DNA from: an uncultured Candidatus Saccharibacteria bacterium
Lineage (GTDB): Bacteria; Patescibacteriota; Saccharimonadia; Saccharimonadales; AWTP1-31
DNA length: 64,000 bases
Direction: 5' to 3'
Assembly (NCBI GenBank): GCA_964629815.1
Contig: CAZVTA010000001.1
Span: 10,100-74,099 of the forward strand
The notes below the pieces were generated by a model. It worked only from the letters and a program-made list of their open reading frames with translations, was not told the DNA's origin and made no database searches. This document shows positions 48,085 through 64,000 of this stretch, piece after piece (the stretch's first letter is position 1; every line of letters starts with the position of its first letter). Both the position numbers and the translations under genes were made by a program.

Positions 48085-48771
48085 ATGATATTGCTGGATA
48101 GAGTTACGAAGGTATACAACACAAACGCAGGCTCAGCGCTGGATAGGATTAATCTACATGTAGAAGCCAAAGAGTTTGTGATTATTGTTGGCGCAAGTGG
48201 TGCAGGAAAGTCGACACTCTTAAAGCTGTTAACTCGAGAAGAGAAGCCGACAAGCGGTAAGATTATTGTAGGCGGCATAGACTATGAATCGCTTAAGGAT
48301 AAAGAGATTCCTCTTTTGCGACGTAAAATTGGCGTGGTTTTTCAGGACTTTAAATTACTACCTAATAAGACCGTGTTTGAGAATGTTGCCTTTGCGCTTG
48401 AGATCGTAGGCATGGGCAATAAAGAGATACGCAATACTGTGCCGCGTGTACTCGATATAGTGGGATTAAAGGGCAAAGAAAATCGAATGCCGCTTGAGCT
48501 TTCAGGTGGTGAAAGACAGCGTGTGGCGATTGCGCGCGCCATTGTACGACAGCCACGTATTCTTATTGCAGATGAGCCAACAGGCAATCTTGATCCAAAG
48601 CATGCCTGGGATGTGATACGCGTATTAGAAAAGATTAATCGATTTGGCACTACAGTTATATTGACGACCCACAATCAAGAAATTGTTAATAAGCTCAAGA
48701 GAAGAGTGATTACTATTCAAGATGGAAAGATCGTGAGTGATCGTGCGAGTGCCGCGGAGTACAAAGTATGA
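48085..48771 (+). CDS. ftsE: Cell division ATP-binding protein FtsE
   Basis: Walker [24 protein letters not shown], and [11 protein letters not shown]. Followed by ftsX with a 4-nt overlap. Confidence 0.94.
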
Positions 48772-49715
48772 GTATGACGCCACATCTTATTACGTTGCGT
48801 CGCATCGTTCGAACGGGTATGGTTAACTTTATCCGTAACGCATGGCTCGGCATGGCAGCCATGGCTGTCATGGTTATAACGCTCACCATTGTGTTGTTTT
48901 CGATTATCGCCAATGCAACGTTTAATAATACAGTCACACAGATAACCGATAAGATTGATGTTTCGGTTTACCTAAAAGATTCAGTTACCGAACAGAAAAG
49001 AGAAGATCTAATTAGTCAATTGTCACGACTGGAAAATGTAAAGAGTGTTAGTTTTGTTTCAAAAGACCAGGCACTGGAAACATACAAGAAACAAAATGCT
49101 AATAACCTTGATCTTCTGCTCGCAATTTCTCAAACGGACAATCCGCTACCGGCTAGTCTTCAGATCAAGCCAAGAGATCCAAACAGAATAGAATCAATCA
49201 AGCAGTTTCTCGAGCGTAAAGACATAAAAGATTTGCAGTCTGACGAGACATCATATTCAGGTGACCGTAAGGAAGCGATTGATAAAATTACCAGTGCAAC
49301 ACACTTTTTTCAAAGAGCGGGCGTAGTGAGTGTTGTTGTGTTTGCGTTTATATCTATGCTCATTATCTTTAATACGATTCAGATGGCAATATTCAACCGG
49401 CGAGATGAGATTACGATTATGCGCCTGCTTGGTGCCAGTACGAACTATATTCGTGGGCCCTTTATTGTCGAGAGTATGATTTACGGCATTGTTTCAGGAA
49501 TATTGTCGATTAGTATTGTCCATTCATTATTTGCGATTTCGTCCAAAGCGTTTGAGGCAAGTAGTTTGGGGTTGCTCGATATTAATTTCTCTAACCAGTA
49601 CTTTCTTCGTTACTACTGGGCCTTTCTGGGCCTGCAGGTTGGTGTGGGTATTTTGATCGGCGCGGTCTCTTCGTTAATTGCTACGAGAAGGTATTTGAAA
49701 TTCAAGACAAGCTAA
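48768..49715 (+). CDS. ftsX: Cell division permease-like protein FtsX
   Basis: 315 aa. N-terminal TM, about 130-aa external domain (VSVYLKD...VKSVSFVSKDQAL), and 3 C-terminal TMs. Confidence 0.92.
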   Translation: MSMTPHLITLRRIVRTGMVNFIRNAWLGMAAMAVMVITLTIVLFSIIANATFNNTVTQITDKIDVSVYLKDSVTEQKREDLISQLSRLENVKSVSFVSKDQALETYKKQNANNLDLLLAISQTDNPLPASLQIKPRDPNRIESIKQFLERKDIKDLQSDETSYSGDRKEAIDKITSATHFFQRAGVVSVVVFAFISMLIIFNTIQMAIFNRRDEITIMRLLGASTNYIRGPFIVESMIYGIVSGILSISIVHSLFAISSKAFEASSLGLLDINFSNQYFLRYYWAFLGLQVGVGILIGAVSSLIATRRYLKFKTS

Positions 49716-49767
49716 ATGAGCACGGTCGATACCGTTTGTCGAGATTATGGTATTATAATAAGTACTT

Positions 49768-50943
49768 ATGCTAATACAAAAACACGCTATTCGAGCAATT
49801 ATGCAGCGCCTTCGTGTGCTGGGTGTTTTAGTTTTTGCGCTCGTGCTTGTCGGGGGTTTCGCTGCCAAATTTGTATATGCAGATCAATTTGAGCAGCAAA
49901 TACGCGAACTTCAGCAACAGAATAATGATAAGCAGCAGAAGATACAGGCCCTTCAGGTAGAGGCGGGGAGCCTGGAGGCAACAATAAGCGGGCTTGCTAA
50001 GCAGATCAATGGTTTGCAAAGCGAGATAGACACCAATGAAAAAAAGAAAGAAGACCTAGAGAAGCAGATTGCCGATGCCGAGGTAGAGCTTGCTAAACAA
50101 AGGCGGGTGCTCGGCGAGAATATAAAAGCGATGTATTTAGAAGGTCAGATTTCCACGCTTGAAATGTTGGCAAGTAGCAAAGACTTGAGTGAGTTCGTAG
50201 ACAAAGAACAATATCGTAATTCTGTTAAAGATAAAATTAAGACAACACTCGATAAAGTGACGGCGCTTAAAAACCAGCTGCGGACTCAGAAGAGCCAAGT
50301 CGAGGTGCTCATAAAAGAGAAGCAGGGGCTTCAAGATCAGATAAGTGCCCAAAAGGCTGAGCAAGATAGGCTACTCGGACTTAATCAGTCTGAGCAAGCT
50401 GCCACCGATAAGCAAATCAAAGATAACTATAATAAGATTATGGACCTAAAGCGGCAACAGGCGATTGAGAATATGCGCTTGTTTGGTGGCGGCGGAGGAA
50501 CTATTGGCGGCGGTGGCTATCCCTGGGGTAGTGCGGTCTGTCTTCATACCGGCGCAGTTGACGGGCCTTGCTGGAATTACGACTGGTCTGTTGGTGGATC
50601 GGTTTGGAACTGGCAAACGGGTGGCTACGGCTATCGTAACTGCACAGACTGGGTATCATTCAGAGTTCGATCAACTGGGCGGATGGTGCCGAGTGGTCTG
50701 GGTAATGCAAACACTTGGGATGACAGGGCTCCAGCATACGGATACACTGTCAGCAGCTCACCAAAAGAAGGCGCGGCAGCCGTAAGCAACAGCGGCAATT
50801 ATGGTCATGTTATGTATGTAGAAGCGGTCAATGGCGACGGTTCGATTATCGTGAGCGACTACAATCGAGCAGGTACAGGAAAATATGATATGACACGATT
50901 AAGCCCGTCAGTTGCTTCGTCGTTGCGGTATGTATATTTCTAA
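49768..50943 (+). CDS. Secreted coiled-coil + CHAP-domain peptidoglycan hydrolase (PcsB-like)
   Basis: Signal/anchor sequence, about 200 aa of heptad-rich coiled coil (QQIRELQQQNNDKQQKIQALQ...), Gly-rich linker, and CHAP catalytic Cys (RNCTDWVSFR) and His (GHVMYVEAV). Confidence 0.85.
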   Translation: MLIQKHAIRAIMQRLRVLGVLVFALVLVGGFAAKFVYADQFEQQIRELQQQNNDKQQKIQALQVEAGSLEATISGLAKQINGLQSEIDTNEKKKEDLEKQIADAEVELAKQRRVLGENIKAMYLEGQISTLEMLASSKDLSEFVDKEQYRNSVKDKIKTTLDKVTALKNQLRTQKSQVEVLIKEKQGLQDQISAQKAEQDRLLGLNQSEQAATDKQIKDNYNKIMDLKRQQAIENMRLFGGGGGTIGGGGYPWGSAVCLHTGAVDGPCWNYDWSVGGSVWNWQTGGYGYRNCTDWVSFRVRSTGRMVPSGLGNANTWDDRAPAYGYTVSSSPKEGAAAVSNSGNYGHVMYVEAVNGDGSIIVSDYNRAGTGKYDMTRLSPSVASSLRYVYF

Positions 50944-50993
50944 GTCGGCTGTAAAATAATGAGAAGAATAGTAATTAATGTGGAGGAGATTGT

Positions 50994-52178
50994 ATGCATA
51001 TGCCCAAAAAACAACAAATAGTTAGGTCTTTAGCGGGCGGACTTGTGCTGTTTTGGGTGTTTGCCGCTGGAGTCATGTACGGCCGTGGTTCTTTCTCACT
51101 TGGTAGCGTTTCAAACAACAGTAAGCTGCCAGATAATTTGAACTATGCCAGTGTAGAGCAAACATACGATATTCTGCGGTCTCGATATGATGGCCGACTC
51201 GATCAAAATACGCTCCTCGATGGCTTAAAAGAAGGCCTTGCGCGTGCAAGTGGTGATCCATACACGGAATATATGAATCCAAAAGATGCGAACTCATTTA
51301 ACGAAGGTTTTACAGGTTCATTCACGGGCATTGGCGCAGTGCTTGGCAAGAACGAGCAAGGAAATGTCATTGTTGTGTCTCCGATTGATGGTTTTCCTGC
51401 AAAACAGGCTGGTCTTCTGCCCAAAGATGTTATCGCCGAGGTTAATGGAGAGGATGCTTCTGCTTGGACTGTTGACAAAGCGGTTGATAAGATACGCGGG
51501 CCAAAAGATACAGTCGTTAAGCTGAAGATAGTTCGAAGTGGTGCGGTTATTGATGTCGAAATTACGCGAGACACTATTACTATTCCAAGTGTTGAATCAA
51601 AAATCCTCGATGGAAATATTGGATACCTAAAGATAACGCAGTTTGGTGATGACACAGTTGAGCTTGCACAACAGGCGGCAAAGAGCTTCAAAGAGAAGGC
51701 AGTTACGGGGGTTGTACTTGATCTCAGAGGAAATCCAGGAGGGTATCTTGAAGGAGCTGTTGATGTGTCGAGTTTGTGGTTGCAAAACTCAACGGTCCTT
51801 AAAGAAAAGCGAGACGGCAAGCTTATGCGAACCTACAATGCGCGCGGCATTGCAACACTCAGTGGCGTTAAGACGGTTGTGCTCATCGATGAAGGTAGTG
51901 CCAGTGCCAGCGAAATTACGGCTGGTGCGCTTCGAGATAATAATGCTGCTAAGCTCGTAGGTGTAAAAAGTTTTGGAAAGGGCAGCGTCCAAGAGATTCA
52001 AAAACTACCAAACGGGGGAATATTAAAAGTTACGATAGCACGGTGGTTTACGCCTAAAGATAAAAATATCGACAAAGAAGGAATTTTGCCCGACAAAGAA
52101 GTCAAGCTGTCCTCAGAAGATATAAAAAATGCTAAAGATCCTCAGTTAGACGCAGCAAAGCTAGAAATAACAGAGTAA
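50994..52178 (+). CDS. C-terminal processing peptidase (S41 family, Ctp) with a PDZ domain
   Basis: PDZ (FPAKQAGLLPKDVIAEVNG), DLRGNPGGYL, catalytic Ser context GSASASEI, and Lys context KSFGKGSVQ. SD GGAGG lies upstream. Confidence 0.92.
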   Translation: MHMPKKQQIVRSLAGGLVLFWVFAAGVMYGRGSFSLGSVSNNSKLPDNLNYASVEQTYDILRSRYDGRLDQNTLLDGLKEGLARASGDPYTEYMNPKDANSFNEGFTGSFTGIGAVLGKNEQGNVIVVSPIDGFPAKQAGLLPKDVIAEVNGEDASAWTVDKAVDKIRGPKDTVVKLKIVRSGAVIDVEITRDTITIPSVESKILDGNIGYLKITQFGDDTVELAQQAAKSFKEKAVTGVVLDLRGNPGGYLEGAVDVSSLWLQNSTVLKEKRDGKLMRTYNARGIATLSGVKTVVLIDEGSASASEITAGALRDNNAAKLVGVKSFGKGSVQEIQKLPNGGILKVTIARWFTPKDKNIDKEGILPDKEVKLSSEDIKNAKDPQLDAAKLEITE

Positions 52179-53871: not shown

Positions 53872-54264
53872 ATGAGTGATGCAAAAGATACAAAAATGAA
53901 AAAGATTTTATTAGTGGAAGACGATGATGCGCTTGCGAGCGTATATCAGACGAGATTGCAAGCAGAAGGTTTCGATGTAAAACGCGTTCCTAACGGCGAA
54001 GATGCATTAGCGTCTGCAATGGAATATCATCCAGACCTTATTATTCTCGATGTAATGATGCCCAAGGTTACGGGTTTTGACGTGCTAGACATACTACGCA
54101 ATACACCGGAGACTGCAAAGACCAAAGTATTAATGCTGACTGCCCTTAGCCAAGAAAGCGACAAAGACCGTGCAAAAAGCCTTGGGGCAGATGACTATCT
54201 CGTAAAATCTCAAGTTGTGATTGCAGATGTTGTAGAGCGCATCAAACATCACTTAAGTATGTAA
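53872..54264 (+). CDS. Stand-alone response-regulator receiver domain (CheY-like), canonical residues present
   Basis: LLVEDDD, phospho-acceptor context IILDVMMP, LMLTAL (Thr), and DYLVKS (Lys). No output domain. Confidence 0.88.
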   Translation: MSDAKDTKMKKILLVEDDDALASVYQTRLQAEGFDVKRVPNGEDALASAMEYHPDLIILDVMMPKVTGFDVLDILRNTPETAKTKVLMLTALSQESDKDRAKSLGADDYLVKSQVVIADVVERIKHHLSM

Positions 54265-54277
54265 GGACTAGTCCTGT

Positions 54278-55456
54278 ATGCAGGAATCGGCAACAGCGAC
54301 GCCTCTTCAGCCAGAAGACCCAGATGAGGGTACATCATTTAATCCTGATCAACCCATATCGCTTGACGATATGAATGCTATGTACGCATCTGGTCAGGCG
54401 CTTCAGCCACTCGAAGATCGGACTGATCTCATGACGGATAAAACCTTAGAGCGCAAGCGTTTGACTATGCAGCAAGAACTGGATCAGCTGAGGTTCGAGG
54501 AAGATCCAAATACAAAGAGTTTGTTTGATGCTTTGCCTCCAACATCTGGCATGAGTATCGATAAGCAAGAATTTATGATTTCGAACGTAGTACGCTCGCC
54601 GCATCGTGCTATGGCGGTCGGTTATGTTACGCTTCCAACAGGCCAAGTTGCTCCTCGGCTGTTTTATAAGTCGTTAAGCCAAGGTGAATGGAGGGTTGCG
54701 CCGTATACGGCTAGAACTATTAATGACGAAGGGATAGTGTCTGGACGTTTTTACTCTAAAGGCGAAACCATGCAATATGGCTATGCGCGAGAAACACAAA
54801 TTCATGATGATTTGAGCGAATCTCTTGAGGCGAAGCTGTCGCAAGCCCAAGAGTGGGGTAACGAAGGTGCTAACTGGCTTATGGACCATTTCACGAACGA
54901 TAAGCTTGGCAAGACAAATACCTATAGAGATGAGGCATTTGAGGTTCGACTATATCCCGCGACTCCTGAGGTATATGGAGCTGCGCCAGGACACTTAGGA
55001 CTGAAGTCGCAAGATGGTAGACCGACTCGAGATATTTTTGCCCACGCGGCCTTGCCTGAGCGTAAGATGCCGAACTATAGTTCGGGCGCAAAAAAAACTG
55101 TCGAGTCTGAACATCCTATCCTTGGCACCGTAATAACTGAAACATATCTTTCAGGTGACACCTTGCTTGCCTGGAAGATTAGTCGAGATAGTAAGGGTAG
55201 GGTTTGGGTTGCAGGAGTCTCAGGAGCTTATGAAGCGCAGCCAACGTCGTATGGTACAAATGAAGAAGTTGTGTCTGCAGGTGTCTATGACAACAAGCCA
55301 CTCGAGTATAAGACACAGGTGAGAGGACTTGAGGCAGGGGTGGATTATAAAGATATTCCTAATATAAAGAGCTATGTAGATATATCGCCATTATTAGACC
55401 ACCTGCCGGTTATAAGAGCATACCGGTTGTCTCAAGGCGTGCAGCGCCTCGAGTAA
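54278..55456 (+). CDS. Hypothetical soluble protein (392 aa), no recognisable motif
   Basis: Long ORF 13 nt after the receiver gene. Acidic/Pro-rich, probably disordered first ~100 aa, then a globular region. No TM helix or signal peptide. Confidence 0.6.
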   Translation: MQESATATPLQPEDPDEGTSFNPDQPISLDDMNAMYASGQALQPLEDRTDLMTDKTLERKRLTMQQELDQLRFEEDPNTKSLFDALPPTSGMSIDKQEFMISNVVRSPHRAMAVGYVTLPTGQVAPRLFYKSLSQGEWRVAPYTARTINDEGIVSGRFYSKGETMQYGYARETQIHDDLSESLEAKLSQAQEWGNEGANWLMDHFTNDKLGKTNTYRDEAFEVRLYPATPEVYGAAPGHLGLKSQDGRPTRDIFAHAALPERKMPNYSSGAKKTVESEHPILGTVITETYLSGDTLLAWKISRDSKGRVWVAGVSGAYEAQPTSYGTNEEVVSAGVYDNKPLEYKTQVRGLEAGVDYKDIPNIKSYVDISPLLDHLPVIRAYRLSQGVQRLE

Positions 55457-55767: not shown

Positions 55768-56943
55768 TTACTTCCTTTTTAGTACTACTAGTTCACGTGC
55801 GACATATTGTCCTTCGCGGTGATAGATGAGGTCTGTCTCCGCGCAGTGAACGAACTTCATACGAGTATACCCTAATTCTTCCAGATAATCAAGCGTTTTA
55901 AGGTGTTTGAAGCCATGGTTCGTCTTCCATGCGGGGACGGCAATGCAAAGCCGAAAGCCAGGCGGGGTTTGAGACGCAAGGTTACTTAAGAATTTCTTAT
56001 GTATCATATGGACGTCTTGCATGACTTTATTGAGTCTGTCTGGTGCAGGTGGTGCAGAAAATGGCTGCCCAAGATATGTTTCGGCTGCGACGGCTGTGAA
56101 CGGATGAGTCCATTGCGCGTTGGTTGCGTCACCTTGTTCTATGGCAATATTCTTACCGGAAGGCTTAAATGCATGCTCGAGCCACTCGATATTGCTTTTG
56201 CTGTATTCTATCATGCGTTCATCGAGGTCAGTACCGTAAGAGCTAAAGCCCATAAGCTGTGCTTCTTGAAGAACGACACCCGTTCCACAAAATGGATCGA
56301 GTATGCAGGTATTTTCTGGACTGGTTCCGGCCAGATTGATGATTATCTGAGCAAGTTTTGGAGGAAGCATGCCGACGCGCGCATCGCGCTTTGGGCGTTC
56401 TTGGTCACGCGCGGCATAGGCATTAATATCTTGTTCGGCTACGGTTTGCGCAAGGATAGTTTTAGATCCGTTCTTTATGAAAACCAATTCCATGCCAAGT
56501 TCGGACGTAAGTTGGTTGTGCAATACTTGAGCGCTGTTGAGCGAGGGCGTGTTATTAGGTACAACCCGAACCGAACGGCCAGTATTCTTTATTATTTTCT
56601 TGAGCGCAAGCGAAGAACGGTTAATATGATTGGCTGGTACATTTAGCCCAAATGCGCTGAGGCCAAGTTTGAGTTTTCCTTCTGGCAGGTAACCGAGATG
56701 TTTGGGTATTTCCACGCTAACGTAGTCGACGAGTTTTTGCCAGTCGGTGTAGGGGAGAACAGTTAATACTTTTGCAAGTTTAATGCTTCCACCGAGGCGA
56801 CTGAAGTCAATCTTGTTGGTAGGGGCATCTACATGTACCGCATAGTGTGCTATAGGTGTTAGTGCGTTGGAACCGTACAAGCTCTCGAGCTCTGCAATAC
56901 CAAGAGACGGTTGTCGACCTAAAAGTAATACGCTTTGTTGCAT
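55768..56943 (-). CDS. Putative SAM-dependent RNA (guanine-N2-type) methyltransferase, Trm11/UPF0020-like
   Basis: Motif I DPFCGTG, GTDLD, and a preceding MLPPKLAQIIINLAG substrate-domain junction. About 190-aa N-terminal RNA-binding-like domain. The stop of this gene abuts the rpmA start. Confidence 0.55.
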   Translation of the reverse strand: MQQSVLLLGRQPSLGIAELESLYGSNALTPIAHYAVHVDAPTNKIDFSRLGGSIKLAKVLTVLPYTDWQKLVDYVSVEIPKHLGYLPEGKLKLGLSAFGLNVPANHINRSSLALKKIIKNTGRSVRVVPNNTPSLNSAQVLHNQLTSELGMELVFIKNGSKTILAQTVAEQDINAYAARDQERPKRDARVGMLPPKLAQIIINLAGTSPENTCILDPFCGTGVVLQEAQLMGFSSYGTDLDERMIEYSKSNIEWLEHAFKPSGKNIAIEQGDATNAQWTHPFTAVAAETYLGQPFSAPPAPDRLNKVMQDVHMIHKKFLSNLASQTPPGFRLCIAVPAWKTNHGFKHLKTLDYLEELGYTRMKFVHCAETDLIYHREGQYVARELVVLKRK

Positions 56944-56995
56944 GTTGTGTCTAGTATAGCTCTGTCAGCTACTTTCCGGTATAGTTTATATAAAT

Positions 56996-58033
56996 ATGAG
57001 TCAAAAAGCTAAAGCTCGTTGGAAGGTGATAATAACGGTACTGACTTTTGTGGCTTTGGGGGGGATGATTTACGCCCTTCGCGTTCAGATCCTTGAGAGT
57101 TTGCGAAATCTTGGCAAGGTAAATACCTGGGCATTGTTGCTCATGATTCCGCTGCAGATAACCAATTATCATGCGTACACCAACCAGTCTCGTTCCTTAT
57201 TTAGACTGCTCGGTGAACGATTGAAATATCGATCGATGTATCGATTGATGCTAGAACTCAATTTCGTAAACAATGTTTTTCCAAGTGGAGGTGTAACGGG
57301 ATTTTCTTATTTTAGTTTACGCATGAAAGATGCAGAGGTGAGTACTGCAAAATCATCACTCGTATACCTTATGCGCTTTATCTTGGTATTTATATCGTTT
57401 CAGATATTGTTAGCCGTTGGTCTTGTTTTGCTTGCAATCGATGGCAGGGCAAGCGGTTTTGTATTGCTTGTTGGTGGCTCGTTGGCTTCGCTTATTCTGT
57501 TTGGTACGTTACTAATTGCGTTTGTGATTGGAAGCAAGACGCGTATCAATGCTTTTTTTGTTACGCTGACACGATTGTTAAATAGGGTTATTCACGTAAT
57601 ACGTCCGCATCATCCAGAAACAATAAACGTAGAAAAGGTAAGGAAGCTATTCGACGAACTTCATGATGATTACATAAAAATTAAAGCAGATCTTGGGAGT
57701 CTCAGGAAGCCTTTGTTGTGGTCGCTGCTCGCCAATGCAACAGAAGTAATGACTATTTATTCGGTCTACATTGCGTTTGGCAACTGGGTGAACCCAGGTG
57801 CGGTGATTTTGGCGTATGCAGTGGCTAACTTTGCGGGTATTGTATCGGTGCTACCGGGAGGCGTCGGTATTTACGAGGCGCTTATGACGGCGGTGCTTGC
57901 CGCCAGTGGTGTTCCTGCTGGGTTGAGTATTCCGGTTACTGTTATGTATCGCGTGCTTAATATGAGCATACAACTGCCCCCGGGTTACTTTTTTTATCAC
58001 AAGAAACTTCATCAGAACAAACAAGTCGCATAA
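56996..58033 (+). CDS. Polytopic membrane protein, UPF0104 / lysylphosphatidylglycerol-synthase-TM-region (flippase-like) family
   Basis: 345 aa with about 8 TM helices. N-terminal KxxWKVIITVLTFVALGGMIY and central/terminal patterns (VLPGGVGIYEA) are typical of this family. Confidence 0.55.
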   Translation: MSQKAKARWKVIITVLTFVALGGMIYALRVQILESLRNLGKVNTWALLLMIPLQITNYHAYTNQSRSLFRLLGERLKYRSMYRLMLELNFVNNVFPSGGVTGFSYFSLRMKDAEVSTAKSSLVYLMRFILVFISFQILLAVGLVLLAIDGRASGFVLLVGGSLASLILFGTLLIAFVIGSKTRINAFFVTLTRLLNRVIHVIRPHHPETINVEKVRKLFDELHDDYIKIKADLGSLRKPLLWSLLANATEVMTIYSVYIAFGNWVNPGAVILAYAVANFAGIVSVLPGGVGIYEALMTAVLAASGVPAGLSIPVTVMYRVLNMSIQLPPGYFFYHKKLHQNKQVA

Positions 58034-59130
58034 TGAACGATCTCATTTTTTCGGTCAGCGATTTTGTGGCGGTATTTAATCAAACTTTAGAAAATGCTTA
58101 CCCGTCGGTTGTCATTGAAGGTGAGCTTGCCAATTTTAAAATTAGCAAAAATAAGTGGATATATTTTGATCTAAAAGACGAAACGGCGAGTGTACGATTC
58201 TTTGGCACGGTGTACGCACTGCCCGGACCTTTAGAGGAGGGGATGGTCGTGCGTGTTCGCGGTGTGCCACGTCTACATCCTGTTTTTGGGTTCTCTATTA
58301 GCGTAACGGCTATTACGCCAGTGGGTGAAGGGACTATACGACATGCGGCAAAACTGCTCGAGGCAAAACTTAGGGCAGAAGGGCTGTTTGACGAGTCACG
58401 CAAACGTACGTTACCGTACCCTCCTGAAAGAATCGGACTCGTTGCTTCCAAAGAATCTGCGGCTTACGCTGACTTTATGAAGGTACTAGCAAAACGGTGG
58501 GGTGGTATAGAAATACTGCACACCGATGTGCAGGTTCAGGGCGAGCTCGCAGTTGAGCAAATTGTAGCAGCTATTGCACAATTAAATATGCATCAAGTAG
58601 AAGCTATTGTTATAACTCGAGGTGGTGGGAGTGCTGACGATTTAGTTGCATTTAGCTCGGAGCAAGTTACGCGGGCAGTGGCACAGAGCCGTATTCCTAC
58701 GTTGGTTGCTATTGGGCATGAAGTCGATATGAGTCTGGCAGAGTTGGCAGCCGATCTTCGCGCAAGTACACCGAGCAACGCAGCAGAGCTGCTTGCGCCG
58801 GAAAAGAGTGCAATTGCAAAACATGCTCATGAACAGGTATTGCGCTGCAAAGATGCTGCTATAGCCCAGTTGAGACAGGACCAACTAGCTGTGCAAGCTT
58901 ACGTACAGGATATGCGACGTGTGGTAGCTGGTACTATAGATCGAGCGCAAGCTGAAGTGTCGACGCTTCAGGAGCTAATTAGGGCGTATGATCCAACTGC
59001 AGTTTTACGCCGTGGATATTCGTTGATAAAAAAACAGGGTAGTGTAGTCAAAAGCGTCCACGATGTTAAAACGGGCGATGCTGTTTCGTTGCAGCTGCAT
59101 GATGGTTCGGTGGATGCACGAATAACGTAG
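58033..59130 (+). CDS. xseA: Exodeoxyribonuclease VII large subunit
   Basis: N-terminal OB fold (VSDFVAVFNQTLENAYPSVVIEGELANF), TRGGGS motif, and HEVD. Confidence 0.92.
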   Translation: MNDLIFSVSDFVAVFNQTLENAYPSVVIEGELANFKISKNKWIYFDLKDETASVRFFGTVYALPGPLEEGMVVRVRGVPRLHPVFGFSISVTAITPVGEGTIRHAAKLLEAKLRAEGLFDESRKRTLPYPPERIGLVASKESAAYADFMKVLAKRWGGIEILHTDVQVQGELAVEQIVAAIAQLNMHQVEAIVITRGGGSADDLVAFSSEQVTRAVAQSRIPTLVAIGHEVDMSLAELAADLRASTPSNAAELLAPEKSAIAKHAHEQVLRCKDAAIAQLRQDQLAVQAYVQDMRRVVAGTIDRAQAEVSTLQELIRAYDPTAVLRRGYSLIKKQGSVVKSVHDVKTGDAVSLQLHDGSVDARIT

Positions 59131-59146
59131 GGTATACTTACTGTAT

Positions 59147-59326
59147 ATGGTGAACAAAAGAACATATAAGCAAATAAAAGCTGAACTAGATGAAGTTATC
59201 GCTTGTTTCGAAGCAGAAACGATAGATATCGATGAGGCAACTACCAAGTATAAAAAGGCTCAGAAGCTTGTTAAGGAGCTTCAGGAATATCTTGCTCACG
59301 CTAAGAACGAAGTTACGAGTCTGTAG
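59147..59326 (+). CDS. xseB: Exodeoxyribonuclease VII small subunit (59 aa; missing from the supplied ORF track)
   Basis: Hand-translated as MVNKRTYKQIKAELDEVIACFEAETIDIDEATTKYKKAQKLVKELQEYLAHAKNEVTSL*. This is a helical hairpin pattern typical of XseB, located directly after xseA. Confidence 0.8.
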   Translation: MVNKRTYKQIKAELDEVIACFEAETIDIDEATTKYKKAQKLVKELQEYLAHAKNEVTSL

Positions 59327-59334
59327 GCTGCAAA

Positions 59335-60027
59335 ATGCTTAAAAAATATGGTACCATAAGCACTATGAAGCGACTCAACCAATCTGGTACGACTGATGCG
59401 TGGTTTATTGGCTTTGTTATTGTACTTGTGCTGTTCTTTGGCGCAACTAGCTTTGCTGTCTGGGCGTTTATGGGTCGTAGTGACTATAAAAATAATGTCG
59501 ATGAAAAGATATCAACAGCTGTCGAGGCCGCCAATAAAGAGCTTGGAACGGTTAAGGACAAAGAATTTGCCGAAAAGGAAAAACAACCTAACCGAACCTA
59601 CACTGGACCTGCGGCGTACGGCACGGTAAGTATCTCGTACCCTAAAACATGGAGCGTCTATGTTGACGAGTCGGGTAAAGGCAGCATACCACTCGATGGT
59701 TATTTGAACCCAAATACCGTCCCTGGGCTACAAAGTGGTGCAAGTTTTGCAACACGCGTGCAAGTTACATCAACTGCCTATGATCAAGAAGTAAAAAGGT
59801 TTGATTCATTTGTAAAAGCCGGAAAATTAAAAGCGAGTGCATTTAGGGCAGATAAAGTAAAAGATATTGTTGGCATACGTATGGAGGGCGAAGTGGTTGT
59901 TGGCAAGCAGGGAATTCTGGTTATACTTCCGCTGCGCGATAAGACTCTTAAGGTGTGGACTGAGTCAACACAATTCGCTAACGATTTTCAGAATACAATT
60001 TTACCTAGTTTGTCGTTTATACCATAG
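59335..60027 (+). CDS. Hypothetical N-terminally anchored extracytoplasmic protein
   Basis: One TM helix (AWFIGFVIVLVLFFGATSFAVWAF) followed by a domain of about 170 aa. No recognised motif. Confidence 0.6.
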   Translation: MLKKYGTISTMKRLNQSGTTDAWFIGFVIVLVLFFGATSFAVWAFMGRSDYKNNVDEKISTAVEAANKELGTVKDKEFAEKEKQPNRTYTGPAAYGTVSISYPKTWSVYVDESGKGSIPLDGYLNPNTVPGLQSGASFATRVQVTSTAYDQEVKRFDSFVKAGKLKASAFRADKVKDIVGIRMEGEVVVGKQGILVILPLRDKTLKVWTESTQFANDFQNTILPSLSFIP

Positions 60028-60084
60028 GCCACACTGAATAGAACAGTGATATACTAGCTTGTACAAAGGGCAGGCTAGAGGGTA

Positions 60085-60807
60085 ATGACAGATCTACACA
60101 CTATTGGCGACACAGACACTTTTGTTGACGCGCAGTCACGGGTGTTTTTCTCATTGTTACAACAAATTAAAACACCATTTTTGCACATTCGTCACGAGGC
60201 GGAGCTAGGGCATGCGCTGCAAGATCCTGAGCGGTTTCAGCAAGTACAAATAACTGCCGATGCGGCACTTGGATTACTCGATAGCTATATGCTGAGCTTG
60301 CAGCTACAGACAACAGGGCCAGAACTTCAGCTTGAGCCAGTTGCGTTGTCTTCGGTTTTAAATGAGGCTGCGCATGCGCTTCAGTTAACAGCACGAGCAT
60401 ACGACACAGATATACAGCTTGTTCTGGACGGCAAATACGAACCAGTTATTGCGCATAAAGCGGGCTTGTTTGCGGCCTTAACTAGTCTTGGGTATGTATT
60501 GCTGCAAACCCCGTCAGCCGGTGCGCGTAAAACGATCGAACTCAGCGCGCATCGATCGCGTGGTGGTATTGTCGCAGGACTATATGCCAATGGCATGGGT
60601 CTTGAAGCGGGGCTTTTAAAAAAAGCTCGCAGTATACCGACCGCGCGTCAGCCGTTTGGTAACGTTGCTAATATTGGTGGGGCGGGCGTATTTATAGCAG
60701 AGGCATTATTGGAGAGTATGCAATCAAGACTACGGATAGCTCGACATCATAATATGCGTGGGTTGGCGGCAACATTTGTACCGAGCCAACAGATGAGTTT
60801 AGTGTAA
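60085..60807 (+). CDS. Soluble histidine-kinase-like protein with degenerate catalytic boxes (probable pseudokinase)
   Basis: DHp-like FFSLLQQIKTPFLHIRHEAEL (compare FxxxxSHELRTPL) and a GHKL-like C-terminal half. In that half the N-box Asn is absent (TSLGYVLLQ), the G1 Asp is Ala (YANGMG), and G2 reads GGAGVF. No TM helix. Confidence 0.55.
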   Translation: MTDLHTIGDTDTFVDAQSRVFFSLLQQIKTPFLHIRHEAELGHALQDPERFQQVQITADAALGLLDSYMLSLQLQTTGPELQLEPVALSSVLNEAAHALQLTARAYDTDIQLVLDGKYEPVIAHKAGLFAALTSLGYVLLQTPSAGARKTIELSAHRSRGGIVAGLYANGMGLEAGLLKKARSIPTARQPFGNVANIGGAGVFIAEALLESMQSRLRIARHHNMRGLAATFVPSQQMSLV

Positions 60808-61181
60808 TGCGGGTGCTTATTGTCGACCCAGATATAGTGATGTCTCGGCAGATGGTAGCGTCGTTTATTAGTGCAGGACACGATACGATTGCTGCTCATA
60901 CTATTGCTGACGCGGTGAATTATCTGGACAATAATAAGGTCGACGCAGTAGTTTTAGAGCTGCATATTCCGGTACATAATGGCGTCGAATTTATGTACGA
61001 ACTTCGTTCATATACCGACTGGCAAACAATCCCCATTGTGGTATATAGCTATGCGAACGATCGTGTCCTTCCAAGCGTTCGAACGCAACAACAGCTTGGC
61101 ATACAGGCATTTCTCTCAAAAACAAAGCACCGGCTGCGAGATGTTATCGTAGCAGTCGAAGCAACTACAATAAACGTATGA
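60807..61181 (+). CDS. Receiver-domain protein with Glu at the phospho-acceptor position (atypical/pseudo-receiver)
   Basis: MRVLIVDPD..., AVVLELHIPVHNG (Glu codon GAG at 60957-60959 where Asp is expected), VVYSYA (Ser), and FLSKT (Lys). ATG overlaps the upstream stop by 1 nt. Confidence 0.7.
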   Translation: MRVLIVDPDIVMSRQMVASFISAGHDTIAAHTIADAVNYLDNNKVDAVVLELHIPVHNGVEFMYELRSYTDWQTIPIVVYSYANDRVLPSVRTQQQLGIQAFLSKTKHRLRDVIVAVEATTINV

Positions 61182-61870
61182 AGCAGATAGTTACCCCAGC
61201 AATCGTGCTGTCACGCATGAATTATGGTGAAGCAGATCGTATTCTGCATGTTATTACCCCAAAACAGGGAAAGATCTCGATTTTAGCCAAAGGTGTACGC
61301 AGAGTTAAGAGCAAGTTGGCAGGGGGCATTGAATTGTTCAGTGTTAATACTATTACGTATATCGATGGACGGAGCGAGCTAAAAACCCTTACGTCATCGC
61401 GCGTAGAGCAGCATTTTGGCAACATTGTTCACGATATAACACGAACGATGTTTGCGTATGATGCACTAAAACTTATACATAAAGTTACCGAAGATGCGGC
61501 AGAAGGCGAGTATTTTGATATGCTAAGCAGTTTGCTGGTTGCGCTGAACGACCCTCAGAGTATAGTCGATGCACTGCGTGTGTGGCTGTATATACAGCTA
61601 CTCGCAACCGAGGGGCATGTACCAAACTTGCGTTCAGATAGTGCTGGTAAAAAACTTCAAGAACAAACAAACTATGTTTTTAGTTTTGAAGACATGGCGT
61701 TTACTGCAAATAGTACGGGTAATTTTACCGATAAGCACATAAAGCTACTCCGACTTATGCTTGCTATTAAAGAGCCCCAAAAGCTGGCGCAGGTGCAAGA
61801 TTTGGCCGTATACGTGCAAGCACTGTTACCGCTTACAAAGACTATGGCACAAACGCATATACGGCTTTGA
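61178..61870 (+). CDS. recO: DNA repair protein RecO
   Basis: N-terminal OB fold pattern AIVLSRMNYGEADRILHVITPKQGKISILAKGVRR. 4-nt overlap (ATGA) with the upstream gene. Confidence 0.88.
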   Translation: MKQIVTPAIVLSRMNYGEADRILHVITPKQGKISILAKGVRRVKSKLAGGIELFSVNTITYIDGRSELKTLTSSRVEQHFGNIVHDITRTMFAYDALKLIHKVTEDAAEGEYFDMLSSLLVALNDPQSIVDALRVWLYIQLLATEGHVPNLRSDSAGKKLQEQTNYVFSFEDMAFTANSTGNFTDKHIKLLRLMLAIKEPQKLAQVQDLAVYVQALLPLTKTMAQTHIRL

Positions 61871-61895
61871 TTTACATCTGTTATAATGTGCCCAT

Positions 61896-63557
61896 ATGAG
61901 TGAAGTAAAAATGGACGATATTGTTAGTTTGTGCAAGCGCCGCGGATTTATTTATCAAGGATCTGAAGTCTACGGCGGCTTAGCAGGGACATGGGATTAT
62001 GGCCCCTTAGGTGTGGCGCTTAAGCGAAATATTATGAACTTGTGGTGGAAGACATTTGTCGAAGATCGTGATGATATGTACGGTGTCGATGCGGCAATTT
62101 TGATGAACCAGAAGGTTTGGCAAGCGAGTGGCCATGCAACTGGGTTTAATGATCCTTTGGTTGAATGTGGAACAGGAAACTGCAATATGCGCTATCGCGC
62201 CGATCATATGCTTGATGATTACACGGGCAATGAAAAGATAGAGACATATCTTAGTCTAGTAAAGAAGATTAGAGACGACTTCTTAAAGTCCAAGAGTGGC
62301 GAAAAAAAACCTTCCCATACAATAAAAAGACTAATTACAGAGTACCTTTATGATGACCCAGAACGCTATGGGCTTAGAGAGTTTGTCAATGCCTATCAAG
62401 ATTTGTCATTTGAAAGAGGCGCATCTTCGGTTGAGCTGTACCTACAGGACTTGTTAGAGAGAGTAAACAGTAGTAGCCTGAACGGCGAAAGACAATTTAA
62501 TGATGATGTATTGGAACAGTGGTATAACCGCTATTCATCAAATGATTGGGGCGAGTTAGCACTTCAACTGTTTTTGAATAAGAACATATCTTGCAAGAAA
62601 TGTGGTGCGAAATATTGGGCTCTACCTCGTCCGTTTAACATGATGTTCAAGACGCATATAGGTCCGGTTGAAGACGACACTTCTGTGAGCTACTTACGGC
62701 CAGAAACTGCACAGGGTATTTTTACTAATTTTAAAAATGTAGTAGATAGTTTATATCCAGACATGCCCTTCGGAATAGCCCAGCAGGGTAAGGCTTTTCG
62801 CAACGAAATTAGTCCAAGAGATTTTGTATTTCGTTCACGGGAGTTTGAGCAAATGGAGATTGAATACTTTGTTGACCCTGACGAATGGGAGAAGTCATTT
62901 GAGCAGTGGCGAACAGATATCATTAGCTTTCTTAAGGAGTTGGGCTTAGCCAATGCTAACATTCATGAACTCGAGGTTCCAGAAGAAGATAGGGCGCATT
63001 ATAGCAAGAGGACTATAGACTTTGAATTCGATTATCCTATTGGTCGAAAAGAATTACTTGGCCTTGCGTACAGAACAGACTTTGACTTAACAAATATTCA
63101 GCGCGACAGCGGCAAGAATATGGAGTATCGAACAAAAGACGGCAACAAGACATTCGTACCACATGTTATAGAGCCGAGTTTTGGTGTTGAGCGGCTACTG
63201 ATGGCAGTTCTTGTTAGTGCGTACGCCGAAGAAGAGATAAATGGTGAAACTCGGGTTGTGCTAAAACTTAAACCAGAACTTGCGCCGTATCGATTTGCGG
63301 TTTCGCCACTCTTAAAAAACAAGCCAGAGTTGGTTGAAAAAGCTCGAGAAGTATACGCAACACTTAAAAAAAAATACGGTAACGTTATCTGGGACGACAA
63401 CGGTAACATCGGTAAGCGCTATCGTCGGCAAGACGAGATTGGCACACCAGAATGTATAGTTATCGACTTCCAGACACTCGAAGACGAAACGGTAACTGTA
63501 CGTGACCGTGATACAACCGAACAAAAACGCGTTGCCATTGCTAGCATTGTCTCTTAG
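61896..63557 (+). CDS. glyQS: Glycyl-tRNA synthetase (alpha2 GlyQS type) with an enlarged insertion
   Basis: LCKRRGFIYQGSEVYGGLAGTWDYGPLG N-terminus, class II motifs (FRNEISPR, FEQMEIEYF), and a C-terminal anticodon-binding domain. 553 aa. Confidence 0.94.
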   Translation: MSEVKMDDIVSLCKRRGFIYQGSEVYGGLAGTWDYGPLGVALKRNIMNLWWKTFVEDRDDMYGVDAAILMNQKVWQASGHATGFNDPLVECGTGNCNMRYRADHMLDDYTGNEKIETYLSLVKKIRDDFLKSKSGEKKPSHTIKRLITEYLYDDPERYGLREFVNAYQDLSFERGASSVELYLQDLLERVNSSSLNGERQFNDDVLEQWYNRYSSNDWGELALQLFLNKNISCKKCGAKYWALPRPFNMMFKTHIGPVEDDTSVSYLRPETAQGIFTNFKNVVDSLYPDMPFGIAQQGKAFRNEISPRDFVFRSREFEQMEIEYFVDPDEWEKSFEQWRTDIISFLKELGLANANIHELEVPEEDRAHYSKRTIDFEFDYPIGRKELLGLAYRTDFDLTNIQRDSGKNMEYRTKDGNKTFVPHVIEPSFGVERLLMAVLVSAYAEEEINGETRVVLKLKPELAPYRFAVSPLLKNKPELVEKAREVYATLKKKYGNVIWDDNGNIGKRYRRQDEIGTPECIVIDFQTLEDETVTVRDRDTTEQKRVAIASIVS

Positions 63558-63602
63558 ATTTGTATTGCCAATAACACAGGTATTTGGTAATAATTGCAGC
63601 AG

Positions 63603-64000
63603 ATGCAATGGGATTATAGGGAAGTAGATATAGTTCAGCTCGAACAAATGGGCGAAGTTTTATCTGCGGTATTGCACAATTCTCCCGAGATGTTCTTCTT
63701 AGGACCAGAAGTATATGATGGTCTTATTGAGCCCATTGAGACACTTGCCCAAAATTTGTTTGGGTCATGGGCATGCCGGGTGTGTACTAGTATGTGTCTG
63801 GGCATTTCTTTTGATGGTGCAAAGGAAACGATAACTGATGCAAACTCAACAGAATTTATAGGTAGATTTACACAAGTAGACTTAATGTTTGAGCAGGATG
63901 CAGACTCCGGACTATTATTGCCGAGTTTAGTGTTTGATACGCTTGATGATCCACAATACGACAGGGCGCTCGCCCAGACATATCCGTTTGTTGGCCTGCC
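63603..64000 (+). CDS. Hypothetical protein, 5' partial view (ORF runs off the window end)
   Basis: Open frame from ATG 63603 to the window edge (MQWDYREVDIVQLEQMGEVLSAVLHN...). No motif recognised. Confidence 0.4.
   Translation, partial: MQWDYREVDIVQLEQMGEVLSAVLHNSPEMFFLGPEVYDGLIEPIETLAQNLFGSWACRVCTSMCLGISFDGAKETITDANSTEFIGRFTQVDLMFEQDADSGLLLPSLVFDTLDDPQYDRALAQTYPFVGL

Follow-up and report, generated by a model that had tools for sequence, protein, structure and literature searches.

What does a two-component pair do when neither partner keeps the residues of phosphotransfer, and why does it lie against recO? The question is raised by a four-gene locus in a 64,000-nucleotide (nt) stretch of DNA from an uncultured Candidatus Saccharibacteria bacterium (contig CAZVTA010000001.1, positions 10,100 to 74,099 of the forward strand; hereafter the window, with positions numbered from its first letter). 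A first-pass annotation, made from the letters and a list of open reading frames (ORFs), had described a kinase-like protein with eroded ATP-binding boxes and a receiver with Glu in place of its phospho-acceptor Asp, coupled to recO, and had read the two as either a signalling remnant or a protein-protein module. We conclude that they are probably a cognate pseudo-kinase/pseudo-receiver pair, catalytically dead and binding each other directly, and we hold any specific cellular role with much less confidence. All four ORFs are present at the coordinates given in that annotation, with the 1-nt and 4-nt overlaps that it claimed, and the features of the locus are as follows.

59335-60027, forward strand: ORF of a PsbP-like membrane protein, likely true start Met11 at 59365
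60085-60807, forward strand: kinase-like ORF, 240 aa; soluble, with a DHp helical hairpin and a CA-like domain
60160-60162, forward strand: H-box phospho-His position, CAA = Gln26, falling on His243 of EnvZ (LLQQIKTPF against SHDLRTPL)
60466-60510, forward strand: N-box helix equivalent, residues 128-142, LFAALTSLGYVLLQT, no Asn
60580-60603, forward strand: degenerate G1 box, residues 166-173, LYANGMGL, with Ala168 at the adenine-binding Asp position
60676-60699, forward strand: partly kept G2 box, residues 198-205, GGAGVFIA
60805-60809, forward strand: TAATG junction, in which the kinase-like stop TAA (60805-60807) shares its last A with the receiver ATG (60807-60809), a 1-nt overlap
60807-61181, forward strand: receiver ORF, 124 aa; single-domain pseudo-receiver, aspartate-less type
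60825-60833, forward strand: metal-ligand site Asp7-Pro8-Asp9, first acidic ligand kept, second replaced by Pro, Asp next
60957-60959, forward strand: phospho-acceptor position, GAG = Glu51, aligned with the phospho-Asp of RpfC-REC, RR468 and PhoB
60981-61025, forward strand: helix alpha3 and alpha3-beta4 loop, residues 59-73, GVEFMYELRSYTDWQ; the receiver's most conserved surface
61178-61181, forward strand: ATGA junction, in which the recO ATG (61178-61180) overlaps the receiver stop TGA (61179-61181), a 4-nt overlap
61178-61870, forward strand: recO, 230 aa; Pfam RecO_N 1.6e-19 and RecO_C 2.3e-5, TIGR00613 5e-21

The kinase ancestry of the 240-aa protein emerged from profiles and structure. 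The protein itself had no Pfam match (neither HisKA nor HATPase_c reached the gathering score), a single-sequence phmmer search against the PDB was empty, and an NCBIfam match to ActS/PrrB was weak (E 9e-4). A profile built from 33 homologues matched CpxA and QseC in the PDB at E 3e-4, and aligning the family profile with EnvZ, PhoR, CpxA, PhoQ and BaeS in hhalign gave a probability of 90.3% (E 1.5e-6, 197 columns). The AlphaFold2 (AF2) model, with a predicted local distance difference test score (pLDDT) of 83.5, had HK853, CpxA, ZraS, RetS and DivL (4q20) as its best Foldseek matches over the full length, at probability 1.0. The model, its structural matches and the hhalign alignment give a DHp hairpin followed by a GHKL-type CA domain, the arrangement of HisKA-type kinases, and the protein carries no transmembrane or sensor domain. 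When Pfam was run on the 33 family members, it found HisKA weakly in 11 of them (best E 0.006) and HATPase_c in none.

The profile-profile alignment with the five histidine kinases fixed the residue register, and in that register the boxes of catalysis are degenerate. Gln26 occupies the place of the phospho-accepting His. At the neighbouring positions that would carry the E/D-x-x-T/N phosphatase motif, the window protein has Gln27 (H+1) and Thr30 (H+4), and the family has Gln in 67 of 81 orthologues and Leu in 56 of 81, respectively, so that the HisKA phosphatase motif is missing family-wide; our taxon sample comprised the best 80 of 172 loci and is biased towards relatives of the window. Residues N343 and N347 of EnvZ align with Ser134 and Gln141, no register of the helix supplies an Asn, and across the family these columns hold Ser and Glu. 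The DxGxG of the G1 box aligns on A168-N-G-M-G. Across the family, column 168 holds Ser, Ala, Gly or Thr, with Asp absent from the residues listed for it (the top four in the 81 orthologues and the top six in 150 representatives), and the Gly columns of G1 are unconserved. The GxGxG of G2 falls on G199-A-G201-V-F203, where the first two Gly residues are retained and the third is replaced by Phe203, itself found in 80 of 81 orthologues. Thus the Gln at the H-box, the missing N-box Asn, the Asp-to-Ala change in G1 and the GGAGVF of G2, all first aligned by eye, hold up in the profile alignment.

Lacking the N-box Asn and the G1 Asp, and with G2 broken, the protein would be expected to have lost ATP binding. 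It has a kinase fold, its kinase function appears to be lost as judged from its sequence, and it is retained under selection (see below), which makes it a pseudo-histidine kinase in the sense of Collins and Childers (as cited in PMC12632262). Its CA-like domain is nevertheless strongly conserved, with G116, Y118 and P120 (in G116-K-Y-x-P), an AAHR motif and GLAAT.

What replaces the phospho-His is informative in itself. The site is Glu in 79 of the 81 orthologues, with one Gln (the window) and one Asn; among the 150 representatives it is Glu in 119, Gln in 11, Asp in 10, His in three, and Ala, Arg and Leu in one each. A site that is mostly Glu yet this tolerant argues for a structural role and against chemistry. 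The three representatives that keep a His (P0382, P0362 and P0329; L086 2405-3536, L088 209-1258 and L089 684-1791) have an AHDLRLPL-like H-box, still have degenerate N and G1 boxes, and are still followed by receivers of the IEPD ... E type; the recO synteny is the same where the contigs reach far enough (L086, L087 and L089). Either the His was lost after the other catalytic apparatus, or it reappeared neutrally in these members. The first-pass annotation had also pointed to nearby His residues as possible acceptors. Its 'His36-Glu37' is off by one, the residues at 60186-60198 including His34, Arg36, His37 and Glu38, and the columns of His34 and His37 are Gln in 59 of 81 and Arg in 66 of 81 orthologues. 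We rejected both as alternative phospho-acceptors because they are unconserved in the family, and we also rejected His156 and His221, which are present in many members but not family-wide.

The downstream partner is recognizable as a receiver. It scored 46.4 bits on Pfam Response_reg (PF00072; gathering cut-off 30.2 bits, E 5e-12), it aligned end to end with solved PDB receivers (E down to 4e-7), and hhalign against PhoB-type receivers gave a probability of 99.5%. At the end of beta3, where the acceptor Asp belongs, 76 of 78 orthologues have Glu and two have Asp. The two acidic metal ligands expected after beta1 (DD) are reduced to one by the Pro, and the family pattern is E-P-D, with Glu in 77, Pro in 77 and Asp in 70 of the 78. 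Ser81 (beta4) and Lys105 (beta5) sit on the conserved Thr and Lys positions (Ser/Thr in 76 and Lys in all 78), and the Lys-Pro and the aromatic switch residue are conserved as well. The PDB search, hhalign and the 78 orthologues therefore all bear out the claim of a Glu at the acceptor site with the Ser/Thr and Lys kept. Because two of the five defining residues fail, the definition in PMC12632262 makes the protein an aspartate-less pseudo-receiver, and with Glu for the acceptor Asp and Pro for the second metal ligand it should not be phosphorylatable. On its most conserved surface the pattern GIEFLYEFRSYxEWQ (alpha3 and the following loop) is nearly invariant among the 78 orthologues, and G59, E61, F62, Y64, E65, R67, S68, Y69 and W72 are invariant or nearly so. 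This alpha3 face is a candidate output face, proposed from its conservation.

Homologues were found only in Saccharibacteria/Patescibacteria assemblies, which makes the source of the window a divergent member of this lineage. The kinase-like family is large, with at least 281 clusters at 90% identity and 261 representatives (50% identity) at E<=1e-30. We calculated ratios of non-synonymous to synonymous substitution rates (dN/dS) with our own Nei-Gojobori code; most genome pairs were saturated at synonymous sites and only four or five were informative, and in these unsaturated pairs the ratio was 0.03-0.06 for the kinase-like gene and 0.03-0.15 for the receiver gene. In moderately diverged pairs, amino-acid identity was higher for the kinase-like protein (0.81-0.87) than for RecO (0.63-0.80) or XseA (0.61-0.74). 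The 'dead' kinase is thus among the most constrained proteins of the region. Comparison with orthologues, which had been proposed as a check on the first reading, comes out in favour of conservation, both for the acceptor Glu and for the degenerate boxes.

Covariation between the two proteins was measured as mutual information with average product correction (APC) over 78 paired sequences (about 70 effective). The second-ranked inter-protein pair joined kinase-like position 37 (H+11) to receiver position 15 (helix 1), a classical specificity contact of the HK853-RR468 and EnvZ-OmpR interfaces, and kinase-like positions 28, 32 and 33 paired with receiver position 53 (acceptor +2). Pairs on the canonical DHp/receiver interface make up 2.8% of all pairs. 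They supplied five of the top 25, against 0.7 expected (p 6e-4), and seven of the top 50 (p 5e-4), and the two best interface pairs, with 37-15 in the lead, scored above the maximum of 20 pairing-shuffled controls. The signal is modest; it supports direct contact between the two proteins without being conclusive.

The pair also keeps its place in the genome. In the window the gene order is an LPG-synthase-TM-like gene (lpg; 56996-58033), xseA, xseB, the four genes of the locus and glycyl-tRNA synthetase (glyS), and the 230-aa product at the end of the locus is RecO, with the RecO_N OB-fold and RecO_C domains and the TIGR00613 family match. Across the 80 kinase-like loci, the receiver gene lies directly downstream in 77 and the PsbP-like gene upstream in 77, and recO is present at 74, xseA at 72, xseB at 71, lpg at 69 and glyS at 61; the absent genes appear to be missing mostly because of contig ends. 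The order kept is lpg, xseA, xseB, a small methyltransferase gene in many, the membrane-protein gene, the kinase-like gene, the receiver gene, recO and, further on, glyS. Finding the whole arrangement in about 75 independent genomes excludes chance. Loss of the recO linkage would have told against the first reading; the linkage is kept in 74 of the 80 related genomes.

The first-pass annotation had called the link to recO unusual, and the receiver-recO junction is indeed much more constant than its neighbours. Of 74 loci, 56 have the ATGA overlap and eight others overlap by 1 nt; the comparison figures are 13 of 68 for lpg-xseA and six of 71 for xseA-xseB. The kinase-like and receiver genes overlap or are separated by at most 6 nt at 64 of 77 loci. 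Thus the receiver-recO coupling is real and unusually stable.

In many relatives a gene for a class I SAM-dependent (DOT1-like) methyltransferase of about 165 aa stands between xseB and the PsbP-like gene; instances are L086 1118-1615 and SEML1_0244, and gaps of about 500 nt occur in, for example, L010, L012 and L017-L020. The window has no such gene, since its xseB ends at 59326 and the following ORF begins at 59335 or 59365. In 56800-63800, matches to promoter and terminator consensus sequences were as numerous as expected at random and were uninformative on operon structure, and no Rfam family matched in 56000-64000. We dropped the idea of a defence island after PADLOC gave no defence-system assignment.

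The protein encoded upstream of the pair is membrane-anchored, as had been supposed. It matched no Pfam or NCBIfam sequence family. Its AF2 model (pLDDT 84.8) has a helix over residues 22-81 followed by an alpha/beta domain, and Foldseek against the PDB retrieved CyanoP/PsbP structures at E 4e-5 to 1e-3 and probability 1.0; a PsbP/Mog1p-like fold, with helices flanking an antiparallel sheet, is given by 2lnj, 2xb3 and 1v2b at E 4e-5 to 5e-4, with target TM-scores of 0.48-0.53. From the model we read a single-pass protein in which the N-terminal part of the helix (hydrophobic at about 23-45) would span the membrane and the rest would form a stalk. One N-terminal span would place the bulk of the protein outside the cytoplasm and leave about 10 residues inside. 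Those residues carry a motif, M-K/R-x-L-N/D-Q-x-G, just before the transmembrane helix, and its conservation is unusual for a signal-anchor n-region. In the NCBI version and in most homologues, the protein is 220 aa long and starts at the equivalent of Met11 (59365), which is probably the true start. A direct signalling link from this membrane protein to the soluble kinase-like protein is not obvious.

A measure of what these genes are worth to a cell comes from Southlakia epibionticum ML1, in which Wang et al. (Cell 2023, PMC10633639) tabulate a block with the same order and gene sizes: SEML1_0241, flippase-like; SEML1_0242 and SEML1_0243, xseA and xseB; SEML1_0244, a methyltransferase; SEML1_0245, assigned as 'Mog1p/PsbP-like' (Table S2); SEML1_0246; SEML1_0247, a 'response regulator' of 366 bp; SEML1_0248, RecO; and SEML1_0249, GlyRS. 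Transposon-insertion sequencing (Tn-seq) classed each gene at three time points as non-essential (NE), growth-defective (GD) or essential (ES), with insertion counts for input, T0, T1 and T2 (Table S1). The PsbP-like gene was essential throughout (ES/ES/ES; insertions 18, 1, 0 and 0). The counterpart of the kinase-like gene, SEML1_0246, was GD/GD/ES (32, 8, 3 and 1), and that of the receiver gene was NE/GD/ES (10, 2, 1 and 0). By contrast, recO was nearly dispensable (NE/NE/GD; 38, 25, 36 and 29). Because insertions in recO, xseA, xseB and the methyltransferase gene were tolerated, the depletion is not polarity on glyS or SEML1_0245, and because recO tolerates insertions while the pair does not, the phenotype belongs to the pair and not to RecO. 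By synteny, then, the pair matters for growth in S. epibionticum. The kinase-like and receiver genes appear in the supplementary tables of that paper but are not discussed in it, and we found no paper discussing these genes in the literature on Saccharibacteria histidine kinases, response regulators or two-component systems.

One further gene of the window bears on how the pair is to be understood.

53872-54264, forward strand: canonical receiver, 130 aa, with VEDDD, LIILDVMMP, LTA and VKS; Pfam Response_reg 5e-25

This receiver could be a true phospho-partner or ligand within the same cell. It stands after pyrG and an FtsX-CHAP-S41 cluster, with no kinase gene adjoining, and is syntenic with the non-essential orphan 'response regulator' SEML1_0238. 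We considered the 392-aa ORF that follows it (54278-55456, forward strand) as a hidden kinase and rejected it; it has no Pfam match, and its match to the profile of the kinase-like family was non-significant. The cluster itself (48085-52178, forward strand) encodes a 228-aa protein (48085-48771), which by synteny is presumably FtsE, followed by FtsX, a PcsB-like coiled-coil hydrolase with a CHAP domain, and an S41 PDZ protease. The syntenic block of S. epibionticum is SEML1_0234-0237, in which FtsE, FtsX and the CHAP protein are essential in Tn-seq, and the cluster is probably cell-separation machinery.

Several explanations other than a directly binding dead pair have to be weighed. The pseudo-kinase might be a modulator of the DivL or RetS type, binding a canonical phospho-receiver such as that at 53872-54264 or heterodimerizing with the PAS histidine kinase of the lineage, with the Glu-receiver as a competitor or decoy. 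Such a reading invokes no catalysis and is partly compatible with the one we prefer, differing in the partners. The raw material is at hand, in a fully canonical single-domain receiver (VEDDD, LDVMMP, LTA and VKS) 7 kb upstream in the window and, in S. epibionticum, in a PAS kinase/response regulator pair (SEML1_0318/0317) and the orphan receiver SEML1_0238; DivL and RetS are among the structural matches, and competitor binding has been proposed for pseudo-two-component proteins (PMC12632262). We nevertheless consider it unlikely. In S. epibionticum neither the canonical receivers nor the PAS kinase is essential (all or most time points are classed NE), whereas the pseudo-pair is strongly depleted, so modulation could explain the phenotype only if deregulation of the canonical system were toxic, and the covariation points to contact with the adjacent Glu-receiver. 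Also improbable in our judgement is a role as an accessory of RecO: these bacteria are naturally competent, and binding of the pseudo-receiver to RecO would govern their recombination or how transforming DNA is processed. The ATGA overlap, far more constant than the neighbouring junctions, speaks for it, as do the Exonuclease VII genes just upstream in the same array. However, RecO is NE/NE/GD while the pair is depleted, so that the pair has a task independent of RecO; the entire 7-kb array is syntenic, including the unrelated LPG-synthase-like gene and glyS; start and stop codons often overlap in this genome, as at about seven of some 48 same-strand junctions in the ORF list of the window; and the adjacency of recO to glyQS is presumably old, as in Bacillus.

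Two further readings were weighed. A phosphorelay with non-canonical chemistry could use another His or Asp, phosphorylation in trans by another kinase, or an acyl-phosphate on Glu. The H-box His of three family representatives, the acidic residue at the first metal position of the receiver with its retained Ser/Thr and Lys, and His156 and His221, conserved in many members, could all be cited for it. We give it very little credence, since the members that bear a His have degenerate N and G1 boxes and Glu-type receivers, many representatives have Tyr, Arg or Phe in place of His156 and His221, Pro stands at the second metal ligand in 77 of 78 receivers, and Glu, Gln, Asp, Ala, Arg and Leu all occur at the His site. 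The idea that the pair is a functionless, decaying remnant of a two-component system draws on the erosion of all its catalytic motifs, and is next to incredible given dN/dS values of 0.03-0.15, intact ORFs in about 80 genomes and at least 261 sequence clusters, replacement residues that are themselves conserved, and the depletion of the syntenic genes in Tn-seq. Of the two alternatives in the first-pass annotation, the 'remnant' is thus contradicted by purifying selection, by a kinase-like protein better conserved than RecO and XseA, and by that depletion, and the 'protein-protein module' is favoured.

We therefore return to a cognate pair of pseudoenzymes, for which we propose the following. 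The pair would have descended from a HisKA-type two-component system, and both partners would have become catalytically inactive. They would dock through the ancestral interface between DHp helix 1 and receiver helix 1 and act by protein-protein binding alone. The receiver would be held in one fixed conformation by Glu51 and by the switch residues that it keeps (Ser/Thr, Lys and the aromatic one), and output would pass through the family-specific alpha3 face (FLYExRSYxEW) towards a partner. Expression would come from one long co-directional array of the PsbP-like, pseudo-kinase, pseudo-receiver, recO and glyS genes, in which the receiver-recO coupling would set a low, fixed level of RecO rather than define the function of the pair. 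The pair would be needed for normal growth of these epibionts, and because RecO is nearly dispensable where the pair is not, its main role is unlikely to be recombination.

Several points weigh against this proposal. The loss of ATP binding and phosphotransfer is deduced from residue states, and the conserved CA-like domain may bind some ligand or partner. Orthology with the S. epibionticum genes, and the Glu/Glu state of their products, are taken from synteny, gene sizes and annotations, and Pfam matches the S. epibionticum protein to HisKA (independent E 3e-4) and HATPase_c (7e-6), somewhat better than it does the window protein. The covariation sample is small, at about 70 effective sequences, and the set of interface positions was fixed partly after the first list had been seen. 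Finally, the very constant ATGA junction hints at a closer relationship with RecO than we allow.

A more far-reaching idea, which we put forward tentatively and regard as doubtful, is that the pseudo-kinase, the pseudo-receiver and the essential PsbP-like protein form a single phosphorylation-free module that defines the Saccharibacteria lineage and to which RecO expression is subordinate. A fossil two-component docking interface might have been taken over as a permanent complex, structural or regulatory, possibly in control of the envelope or of polar budding; the analogy is with DivL and PsmA. If so, the pair would be the first of its kind, with cognate two-component partners that are both obligate pseudoenzymes and yet quasi-essential.

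The locus matters in several respects even short of that. A whole class-level lineage conserves the substituted residues, Glu at both the His and the Asp position and Pro at a metal ligand, and synteny ties the genes to growth in S. epibionticum, a genetically tractable species. Current annotation calls the products 'hypothetical protein', or misleadingly 'HAMP domain-containing histidine kinase' and 'response regulator'. Three adjacent Patescibacteria genes, the equivalents of SEML1_0245-0247, become candidates for the essential biology of reduced epibionts. The pair opens the questions of what a two-component docking interface does once phosphotransfer is gone, and of whether Glu is truly phosphomimetic in natural pseudo-receivers. 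The 2025 review by Bourret calls the mode of action of bacterial pseudo-receivers 'a mystery' and counts only two non-orphans among 20 characterized bacterial atypical regulators (PMC12632262).

On the kinase side, the closest likeness is to PsmA, a hybrid histidine pseudokinase of Streptomyces venezuelae that carries Glu in place of the phospho-His, has degenerate ATP motifs and shows no autokinase activity (PMC12963549). Both proteins have HisKA-type DHp and CA domains with Glu at the His site, which varies to Asp, Gln, Val or Tyr in PsmA orthologues and among Glu, Gln, Asp and rarely His here; both lack the E/D-x-x-T/N phosphatase motif, and PsmA acts by protein-protein contacts (PMC12963549). 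By contrast, PsmA is a large fused PAS-PAS-HK protein with a long disordered linker and a REC domain that keeps its Asp, is confined to Streptomycetaceae and binds DivIVA, whereas the kinase-like protein here has no input domain, and the receiver, which carries Glu and Pro substitutions, is encoded separately. DivL of Caulobacter crescentus is similar in having a kinase fold without a phospho-His (it has Tyr), in being essential, and in using the DHp/receiver docking surface for sensing and binding, through which it reads DivK~P (PMC4211667, 10.1101/812529). It differs in its PAS domains and membrane anchor and in that its ligand is a phosphorylatable receiver; the adjacent partner here is a pseudo-receiver, so there is no phosphorylation state to read. 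RetS, which regulates GacS without phosphotransfer, likewise uses a kinase core as a binding module, and RetS structures are among our best structural matches, but RetS is a membrane hybrid sensor acting on another kinase, and we have no evidence here towards a kinase partner.

On the receiver side, the Glu-type aspartate-less receivers of plant PRRs and fungal Rim15p share the Asp-to-Glu change, the retained Ser/Thr and Lys and independence from phosphorylation, and Glu is the commonest replacement at the D position in bacterial pseudo-receivers (PMC12632262). Unlike them, the receiver here has a dead, co-evolving kinase-like partner, an extra Pro and a conserved alpha3 face. The pseudo-receiver of FrzS from Myxococcus xanthus binds SgmX through alpha3-beta4-alpha4, a face seen in use only in that pseudo-receiver (PMC12632262), and alpha3 with the alpha3-beta4 loop is the most conserved part here; FrzS has a long coiled-coil output domain and belongs to a chemosensory pathway, and no kinship in sequence beyond the shared receiver fold was looked for or found. 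Taken together, each half of the pair has precedents, the kinase in PsmA, DivL and RetS and the receiver in the Glu-type aspartate-less receivers. What appears to be new is the combination, a separate, operon-encoded and co-evolving pair in which both partners are dead.

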